DNA from: Escherichia coli
GTDB lineage: Bacteria > Pseudomonadota > Gammaproteobacteria > Enterobacterales > Enterobacteriaceae
Length of the DNA stretch: 64,000 nt
Direction: 5' to 3' (one strand)
Assembly: GCF_024223415.1 (NCBI RefSeq)
Contig: NZ_CP100500.1
The position numbers and the translations under genes are program-made. Shown piece by piece: positions 18,705 to 19,536 of the stretch (its first letter is position 1; every line of letters begins with the position of its first letter). The notes under the pieces were generated by a model. The model was not told the DNA's origin and did not search any database. It worked only from the letters and a program-made list of their open reading frames with translations.

Positions 18705-18730
18705 TGGTGGAGCTGGCGGGAGTTGAACCG
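18705..18730 (-). other. Fragment matching the 3' end of tmRNA (ssrA); possible relic attachment-site core
   Basis: Minus strand reads ccggttcaactcccgccagctccacca, which matches my memory of the last about 25 nt of E. coli ssrA ending in CCA; no full tmRNA is present. Confidence 0.4.
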
Positions 18731-18811
18731 GCGAGCCTTTCGGCTCCCCCATGCGCCCCACAATAATTCATATGTGCGCGTGCATACGAGAAAAAACACT
18801 TGTTATATCTG

Positions 18812-19373
18812 CTAAAGCTGCATCAGCCTTTCCACCAGTTGTTCTTTACGGGCAACGAGCCAGCCGTGTTGCTCCAGATAAAATTTAAACCGTTCCAGAG
18901 TGCATACCATCGCATCGGCGGGGACTTTTTCTGTGAACTCTACCTGACCGTGTTTATCAAAGTGGATCAGTAATGCGCATCCATCATTTGGGGTGGGTGA
19001 GTTTTGTGTTGCTGGTGGTTGTTTTTGGCTGAAATAACAGTCTTCCAGTTTTTCGAACACTTCCCATGCCTGATCGGTTTCGAGCATTTTGGCATGGCGG
19101 GCTGCGCCACGTTCTGTCCAGAGGATAAGGGAGCGGGCATTTTTACCAACTAACCCGATTGTTTCGGGTCTGTTCTTAAACTCGCGTAATTCGTTTTTTT
19201 TCAATTTTAAAGTAATGCTTTCCTACCACGAATCGCGTCGTGTTGTTCAGAAAGTTATCAGAAATGTTTTTGATTTTTGTTCCGTATAACTGCGCCAGAA
19301 GTTCAGTTGTAATAACGGGGACCTGGTTGTGGGTGATTGCAGGAAGAGTGTCGACAGAAATTTGAGTGGGCAT
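18812..19373 (-). pseudogene. ORF6N/antirepressor-like phage regulatory gene, split by a frameshift in an A8 run (19194-19201)
   Basis: N-part MPTQISVDTLPAITHNQVPVITTELLAQLYGTKIKNISDNFLNNTTRFVVGKHYFKIEKK and C-part ELREFKNRPETIGLVGKNARSLILWTERGAARHAKMLETDQAWEVF form one domain but lie in two frames. Confidence 0.55.
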
Positions 19374-19536
19374 AACGATAACTCCGTACATTTGAAAATT
19401 ATCGCCACCTTCAGGTTCCAATCATCATGGTGGCGAACTGTGCGGGGTTGGAACTACCGGGTACGGAAACCGGCGAGCCTTTCGGCTCCCCCACACAGCC
19501 CGCCATAAATCGCGAATGTGACTGTGCAAACGATAT

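Follow-up and report, generated by a model that had tools for sequence, protein, structure and literature searches.

The right end of a prophage in Escherichia coli poses a question about mobility. There, a short copy of the 3' end of ssrA, the tmRNA gene, overlaps one of two exact 26-bp direct repeats, and the two repeats bracket an antirepressor gene. Is this a working integration or excision module, the remains of one, or something of a different kind? A sequence-only reading of the window (the whole stretch of 64,000 nt that was analysed) had offered two answers: that the cargo end of the prophage is mosaic and derives in part from an ssrA-integrating element, or that the repeats mark an internal recombination module. 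Our analysis bears out the first and rejects the second. The reading that we propose, with a probability of roughly 80%, is that the locus comprises an isrK-C4-ant antirepressor switch and, adjacent to it, a scar, possibly made by an integrase, in which a truncated second C4 gene (C4') is fused to a fragment of an ssrA-type att site.

The host element is a single 46-kb lambdoid prophage that runs from ompW and the integrase to a displaced 3' fragment of ompW. This fragment, at 19835-19960 on the plus strand, marks the right end of the prophage (attR) and is listed by PGAP as a pseudogene ('OmpW family... missing N-terminus'). The sole integrase of the prophage adjoins intact ompW, at the end opposite attR, and within the 46 kb we found no second integrase, no ssrA-type integrase and no nested phage. 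Prophages integrated at ompW have been described, and both the integration of prophages into prophages and recombination between prophages are documented for them (Nakamura et al. 2021, PMC8112680). Positions 18500-19700 of the window are 100% identical to E. coli strain Ch1 (NZ_CP127316.1). The isrK-C4-ant module lies on the minus strand at the far right end of the prophage, next to the ompW attR; in the RefSeq records examined it is unannotated, with only an ORF6N protein listed.

The repeat is the natural place to begin. The 26-mer AACCGGCGAGCCTTTCGGCTCCCCCA has two exact occurrences in the window, at 18726-18751 and 19468-19493, 742 bp apart (none is expected from shuffles), and these bracket the antirepressor gene ant at 18812-19373 on the minus strand, an assignment that PHROG 2379 and the PGAP ORF6N call support. 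To this extent the sequence-only reading was right: the repeat is real and it does bracket ant. What went unrecognized was its identity. Similarity between the two copies reaches 44 nt at 84% identity and continues more weakly over about 90 nt, and copy 2 consists of the closing-stem 5' strand, hairpin 1 and the start of hairpin 2 of a complete C4 gene. By homology and predicted fold, the "26-bp direct repeat" represents the conserved 5' half that two C4 genes have in common, and the right copy belongs to an intact, apparently functional one, the C4 regulator of the very antirepressor gene that is bracketed. A REP element or generic terminator was considered for the repeat and rejected: there are only two copies in the 64-kb window, no T-run follows the hairpin, and both copies stand in a C4 context. 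Since the repeats are parts of a C4 gene and its truncated paralogue, they constitute no dedicated recombination module, terminator or REP element; nor does the 742-bp segment hold a recombinase, and the proposal of an internal recombination module falls with this.

The complete C4 antisense RNA gene lies at 19426-19510 on the minus strand and holds repeat copy 2. It matches Rfam family RF01695 over the whole model (positions 1-87 of 87) with 78.9 bits against a gathering score of 45, and its minimum-free-energy fold is the structure of the family, at -49 kcal/mol with a z-score of -5.54 and none of 200 shuffles as good. The feature that defines C4 RNAs, a stable long closing stem enclosing two hairpins, is present in full. 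The antirepressor leader at 19374-19425 (minus strand) carries what would be the targets of this RNA. The hairpin 2 loop presents UCCGUAC, the complement of GUACGGA at the ribosome-binding site of ant (19383-19389, overlapping it), and the junction presents GUUCCAA, the complement of UUGGAAC, which occurs in the leader (19415-19421) and again in isrK. Both complementarities to the leader are exact 7-mers, at C4 positions 44-50 for GUACGGA and 57-63 for UUGGAAC.

Upstream of C4, at 19538-19627 on the minus strand, lies isrK, a small RNA that corresponds to the a1-b1 decoy-target element and in which the UUGGAAC complementary to C4 is found. The match to isrK (RF01394) at 19538-19614 is full length and scores 72.7 bits (gathering score 50); overlapping it is a c4-a1b1 motif (RF03163) whose 44.6 bits fall just short of the threshold of 46.7. 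An intrinsic terminator of isrK is located at 19542-19559. A sigma-70 promoter-like site at 19621-19650 on the minus strand (TTGACA-18-TATATT, 11 of 12 matches) would drive isrK, C4 and ant together. At the other end of the module, ant encodes an antirepressor of the ORF6N type in two open reading frame pieces, which cover positions 1-61 and 58-187 of the 187 in PHROG 2379 ("anti-repressor"). PGAP calls it an "ORF6N domain-containing protein, frameshifted", and the break comes from a single additional T in a T-run near 19194; strains LR-31 and F1022, both otherwise identical over 18551-19881, have an intact gene of 186 codons.

This minus-strand order of promoter, isrK/a1b1, C4 and ant is that of an antirepressor switch of the P1-immI or Gifsy-1-isrK type, and the arrangement is predicted to work. 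As in P1, C4 would be expected to hold Ant untranslated. In this ompW prophage, which is associated with poultry and humans, the module probably governs induction driven by the antirepressor.

In the immI region of P1 and P7, the architecture is c4 antisense RNA, icd and ant. The locus described here resembles immI in its one-transcript order of a1/b1, C4, leader targets and antirepressor, in a full-length RF01695 C4 with the family structure, and in exposed C4 segments whose complements lie in the leader, the ribosome-binding site included. Unlike immI, it has no icd-like open reading frame between C4 and ant and a leader of just 52 nt; it sits at the right end of a lambdoid prophage, by attR, and not in a P1-type plasmid prophage; its Ant is of the ORF6N type; and a second, truncated C4 follows downstream. 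A further relative is the Gifsy-1 isrK-orf45-anrP-isrJ locus of Salmonella (Hershko-Shalev et al. 2016, PMC4825925), which likewise has an isrK with its own terminator, read-through into the antirepressor gene and a further small RNA locus downstream. It differs in that its orf45 region corresponds to the C4 RNA gene here and in what follows the antirepressor gene: downstream of ant we found no Rfam match to isrJ, and a C4 stump fused to an ssrA end stands there instead. On these likenesses, the module is a member of the known C4/isrK family of antirepressor control.

The stump, C4', occupies 18726-18797 on the minus strand and holds repeat copy 1. Positions 18726-18769 comprise the closing-stem 5' strand, hairpin 1 and the 5' strand of hairpin 2, and 18770-18797 hold the spacer upstream of it together with a T-tract left from an isrK-like terminator that is now lost. 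Its Rfam match, at 18700-18768, is weak (20.9 bits against the gathering score of 45). Stx phages such as VT2phi_272 have a C4 region that agrees with C4' at 89-91% identity, and the C4 gene of another ompW prophage, that of strain OkiPb01697, agrees with it at 90%. In those intact genes hairpin 2 runs ...GCCGG-UYGGUUU-CCCGG-UAGUUCCAACC, whereas at the same place the window runs ...GCCGG-UUCAACU-CCCGC-CAGCUCCACCA, which is the end of ssrA. Hairpin 2 and the b' segment have been replaced by ssrA sequence, both antisense segments are lost, and C4' has no 7-mer complementarity to the ant leader or to isrK. Because hairpin 2 and both antisense segments are lost, the stump is most likely inert.

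The ssrA sequence itself is short and exact. TGGTGGAGCTGGCGGGAGTTGAACC occurs once in the window, at 18705-18729 on the minus strand (no matches in 100 shuffles), and is identical to the last 25 nt of E. coli ssrA, comprising the T-loop, the 3' strand of the T-stem, the 3' strand of the acceptor stem and CCA. A match to the ssrA end had been proposed at this place from the letters alone, and alignment upholds it at 25 and not 26 nt, base 18730 being mismatched; past the mismatch three further bases (GCG) agree, making 28 of 29. Such an alignment to ssrA had been advised as a check, and in it the 25-mer is the precise 3' end of the annotated O157:H7 gene: it recurs at 49154-49178 of the ECP19-598 locus (L003), where tmRNA is annotated at 49154-49516 on the minus strand. 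The local Rfam match to tmRNA (RF00023) at 18705-18747 on the minus strand covers the 3' end only, with 22.5 bits (E 1.2e-6) and thus under the gathering score of 47, and ARAGORN found no tmRNA or tRNA gene in the window or at related loci. A complete tmRNA gene was rejected on these two results and on the identity to ssrA, which is confined to 25 nt.

Beyond the core, positions 18434-18704 have the content of an att arm. This DNA is about 85% identical to that between dinI and ssrA in O157:H7 and matches the attP arm of LMessi. It contains two LexA-box-like palindromes (18449-18464 and 18478-18493), a bidirectional terminator (18553-18584) and the conserved block ACGTGCATTTCACGTG (18594-18609), which occurs once in the window and recurs in the arms of ssrA phages. 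The dinI-like gene that follows, at 18185-18433 on the minus strand (PHROG 189 DinI, E 3e-26; PGAP "DinI-like family protein"), is co-linear with dinI beside ssrA in the O157 and O145 prophages. Over 18150-18729, that is, dinI, some 270 nt of non-coding DNA and the 25-mer, the window aligns at about 85% with the O157:H7 stretch from dinI to the 3' end of ssrA, and this homology halts exactly after GAACC; O145:H28 has the same layout of dinI, arm and ssrA. The claim that the cargo end is mosaic and came in part from an ssrA-integrating element is sustained by these comparisons, as the 25-mer with about 550 bp of flank is homologous to dinI-to-ssrA junctions and the arm also to the attP of free phages.

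The free phages reveal how a whole site continues. In LMessi the same arm lies between the tail-fibre genes and the integrase, which is about 130 bp from the att core, and the sequence goes on through GAACCCGTGTCCGAA into an unrelated second arm; the PhiR12 phages match the arm at 87%, and PhiR12_1 continues into the second arm likewise. Real attPs go on with CCCGT(G/A)TCCGAA where the homology of the window ends. After GAACC, true attPs read CCCGTRTCCGAA, followed by the unrelated arm and the integrase. Compared with the att sites of ssrA phages (LMessi, PhiR12, CP-1639 and the O157 prophage by ssrA), the locus has an arm that is 80-87% identical, the same ssrA 3' end, and dinI and tail-fibre genes on the same side. 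It differs in that real attPs have about 36 nt of ssrA identity as against 25 nt here, and in that a C4 fragment has taken the place of the missing arm and integrase, in a host whose own integrase is ompW-specific. That C4' could be a normal part of an ssrA-phage attP was considered and rejected, as LMessi and PhiR12 show the longer ssrA match and an unrelated second arm.

From these homologies, 18434-18729 is one arm and the core of an ssrA-type att site, and the site is a dead fossil because a single arm is left and there is no cognate integrase. Features of a functional ssrA attP are missing: the site consists of one arm and a 25-nt core, the second arm has given way to C4', and in place of an adjacent cognate tyrosine integrase there is only the ompW-type integrase at the other end of the prophage. 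In the O157 and O145 ssrA prophages the integrase ends have been lost to IS elements, and the other att junction is therefore unreadable there. The same block of dinI, arm and core is found, identical, in a prophage of strain TUM9803 (at a tRNA-Ser fragment near yodB), where it is joined to other DNA at about the same base. The dinI-arm-core block therefore moves between phages with different integration modules.

How was the att fragment joined to a C4 gene? The joint lies within the att core, exactly at the boundary of T-loop and T-stem, and the partner sequences resemble each other there. Aligned in the register of the joint, intact C4 alleles of the stump type share 19 of 32 bases with the 3'-terminal 32 nt of ssrA, a level reached at 7 of about 128,000 window positions, one of them the fossil itself. 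In those alleles hairpin 2, with its 5-bp stem and 7-nt loop, is T-arm-like. We hypothesize that an ssrA-type integrase used this T-arm-like hairpin, in a C4 gene carried by a resident ompW prophage, as a secondary site of attachment, so that one prophage would have inserted into another by recombination of attP with the C4 gene. Homologous recombination between the two lambdoid genomes would next have resolved the pair into a single hybrid phage, and the variant without the 742 bp, described below, would have come from recombination in the shared C4 segment. The other end of the stump, where at 18797-18812 the T-tract is joined to the stop codon of ant, would require a second, illegitimate event.

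The same scar could have arisen independently of an integrase, by microhomology-mediated joining of an att region and a C4 gene, with the location in the att core a coincidence; this we regard as a real, if minority, possibility. The bases shared at the joint (strictly the 4 nt AACC, or 7 of 8 for AACCnGCG) would suffice for such a joining, the host prophage is without an ssrA-type integrase, and the stump end at 18797-18812 is clearly illegitimate and has no att features. The reciprocal product is missing as well. It would consist of the C4 3' half (...CCGGGAAACCAA or ...CCGGGTACGGAA), then CCCGYRTCCGAA and an ssrA-type integrase, and the genomes examined yielded neither this junction of arm, integrase and C4 3' half nor a primary product in which a full isrK' precedes the stump. 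A nested prophage with the reciprocal junction and an ssrA-type integrase was likewise sought in Ch1 and ECCNB12-2 and rejected, both being single 46-kb lambdoid elements. Against chance joining, however, the breakpoint falls inside the 25-36-nt att core of a phage genome of about 45 kb, and there precisely at the T-loop/T-stem boundary; its partner is an in-register look-alike of ssrA, of a kind met at about 5 in 100,000 positions; and a second prophage has the same core joined elsewhere at almost the same base. Between an integrase-mediated origin and microhomology joining the odds are roughly even, and under either origin the structure is a recombination scar. We offer only tentatively the wider proposal that tRNA-like C4 genes, with their acceptor-like closing stem, 5-bp/7-nt hairpin and ...UCCAACC tail, may serve tmRNA- and tRNA-targeting integrases as secondary sites, 18705-18797 being the footprint of one such event.

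The distribution of the joint gives a further view of its history. Among 5426 complete E. coli genomes, the window-type arrangement is present in 15, a type that lacks the 742 bp in two, and another joint at the same core in one more. A search for prophage variants without the segment had been suggested at the outset, and the two genomes, ECCNB12-2 and TUM1886, carry the same ompW prophage and lack exactly the 742 bp between the repeats; the window minus 18752-19493 aligns gap-free to both (loci L007 and L010). A deletion form is what plain short-homology recombination between two conserved copies would yield. In both variants the core is fused to the 5' half of C4 and then directly followed by isrK and attR, with no ant gene. 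Their isrK allele differs from that of the window by about 8% over 250 nt, with changes in both stem-loops, and the variant is therefore not a simple recent deletion of this exact sequence. It looks like the product of an exchange with another ompW phage in the shared C4 segment, in preference to a recent intramolecular deletion. Within E. coli the joint is clonal, and a 21-mer across it has no exact match in IMG/VR or in the GTDB representative genomes. Nearly all of 120 IMG/VR loci with the 23-nt ssrA end are ssrA or ordinary attP-like sites; a few have other partners past the T-loop, and none of these is C4-like.

Two other accounts would assign the fossil a present function. In the first, the core is a live target within the prophage, an attB copy open to ssrA-targeting phages and islands. 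By direct reading, about 21 of 24 bases around the T-loop are identical to ssrA attB (CTGGCGGGAGTTGAACCgGCGagC vs CTGGCGGGAGTTGAACCCGCGTCC), and in ompW prophages phages are documented to have integrated at captured copies of attB (PMC8112680). The site is unoccupied, however, in all 15 window-type and both deleted-type genomes, phage arm DNA on one side makes it a hybrid of the attL/attR kind and not a copy of attB, and a prophage-borne attB with an ssrA core was not found described in the literature searched. We consider this account improbable.

In the second, which appears very unlikely, the C4'::ssrA chimera is a functional tRNA-like RNA, freed from the 3' untranslated region of ant by RNase P and acting as a stabilizer, a decoy or a C4 of new specificity. 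RNase P reportedly processes C4 precursors, as Hartmann and colleagues are said to have described in 1995. The chimera is predicted to form a 7-bp closing helix (GUGGGGC/GCUCCAC) followed by CA, it keeps hairpin 1 intact, and it lies between ant and a strong terminator, where it should be co-transcribed. Its fold, however, is unexceptional (z-score -1.77, with 11 of 200 shuffles folding equally well), and only the outer helix and hairpin 1 remain in the centroid structure. It has no hairpin 2 and none of the 7-mers complementary to the leader or isrK, falls below the Rfam thresholds of both families (20.9 bits for C4, 22.5 for tmRNA) and is negative in ARAGORN. The absence of the junction from IMG/VR and the GTDB representatives and its clonality in E. 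coli give no sign of selection, and in the variant lacking 742 bp the same chimera stands downstream of isrK without ant.

A dedicated excisable or invertible antirepressor cassette bounded by the repeats is scarcely credible. The 742-bp unit does have the exact 26-bp direct repeat on either side, and there are variants that lack precisely this unit. However, the segment holds only ant, its leader and the C4 3' half with no recombinase; the repeats are accounted for as parts of two paralogous RNA genes; and the deleted form, limited to 2 of 5426 genomes, has another isrK allele, in keeping with homologous exchange between phages.

The combination of switch and scar has its closest setting in the ompW prophages of STEC and EPEC, which share with the present element the lambda-like ompW family, foreign att sequences in the cargo end and hybrids formed by recombination (Nakamura et al. 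2021, PMC8112680). In those elements the captured sequences are copies of chromosomal attBs (yecE, ykgJ-ecpE and ompW) and are occupied by phages. Here, in contrast, there is half an att site, one arm with its core, which is unoccupied, and the proposed target is an RNA gene of the prophage itself. The fusion is rare, and we did not find it described in the literature searched, yet it is ordinary lambdoid mosaicism. The one point that may surprise specialists is the idea that a tRNA-like immunity RNA gene of a phage acted as a secondary site of attachment.

Recognizing the parts of this locus averts a mis-annotation, since a tmRNA 3' end and an exact repeat together mimic an integration or excision module. 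The scar is also a clean natural case of lambdoid phages swapping their ends at att cores. Should an integrase indeed have made the joint, phage RNA genes would join the secondary attachment sites, and immunity modules would be linked to the dynamics of prophages within prophages. Lambdoid phages could then exchange integration modules and cargo ends, and at the same time inactivate the antirepressor switch of a rival, by integrating into a prophage at an immunity RNA gene and afterwards undergoing homologous recombination.

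Joints at ssrA cores were also found in other elements. In the window, the fossil att core (the last 25 nt of ssrA, 18705-18729, minus strand) is separated from dinI by an arm, and the prophage of strain TUM9803 (L008 3060-3620) has the same succession of dinI, arm and ssrA core, its core matching over 23 nt and, past one mismatch, over a further CCGC. The sequence past this core is similar to the DNA next to dinI in the O157 prophage, and the right end of the TUM9803 prophage is a tRNA-Ser 3' fragment adjoining yodB. Four IMG/VR loci (L038, L065, L070 and L096) have ssrA-type arms of another family (…CACCGTCCAATCATGAT + core), each with a different partner sequence starting 3-6 nt past the T-loop. 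Because these arms join four unrelated sequences, variation of the partner directly after the T-loop seems to be common among ssrA-targeting elements.

Att arms of ssrA-type phages share the motif ACGTGCATTTYACGTR without a single change (window 18594-18609, L009 75-90 and L005 3644-3659), and PhiR12_1 has it in the other arm too; it is a candidate for an arm-type integrase binding site. The region upstream of dinI in the prophage has two LexA-box-like palindromes (CTGT-N8-ACAG; 18449-18464 and 18478-18493); they overlap a promoter-like site (18498-18469), and the O157 ssrA prophage has kept both.

Among the cargo genes of the prophage is one for a YadA-like trimeric autotransporter adhesin of 469 aa with internal repeats (15876-17285, plus strand). 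Next comes a small "sigma factor-like helix-turn-helix" protein (17346-17801, plus strand), and the related prophages at ompW and serU keep the pair. Outside the prophage, Rfam matches the chromosomal DNA of the window to the STnc180 sRNA (40803-41005, plus strand; 198.7 bits) and, with 93.1 bits, to the trp operon leader (28270-28363, minus strand), which fits the yciEFG-trp neighbourhood.

A single additional T, in a T8 run at 19194-19201, shifts the reading frame of the antirepressor gene ant (18812-19373, minus strand). Strains LR-31 and F1022, identical to the window over 18551-19881 apart from this run, have T7 and an intact ant encoding the 186-aa protein WP_001143132.1. The frameshift could be a true phase-type mutation, or the homopolymer could have been misassembled.

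The "orf45" of Salmonella Gifsy-1, which lies between isrK and anrP, is reported to be conserved in nucleotide but not in amino-acid sequence (PMC4825925). Since the C4 antisense RNA gene fills the equivalent position in the window, and an AUG within C4 starts a 31-codon ORF (19411-19506, minus strand), "orf45" may largely coincide with a C4 RNA gene.

The ompW prophage variant that lacks 742 bp (L007) carries a different isrK/a1b1 (L007 3177-3266), in a module without the 3' half of C4 and without ant. Compared with window 19575-19627, its differences are clustered and affect both stem-loops, the UUGGAAC of the window isrK/a1b1 reading UUGGCG... in the variant; the L007 isrK/a1b1 is a separate "immunity specificity" allele.
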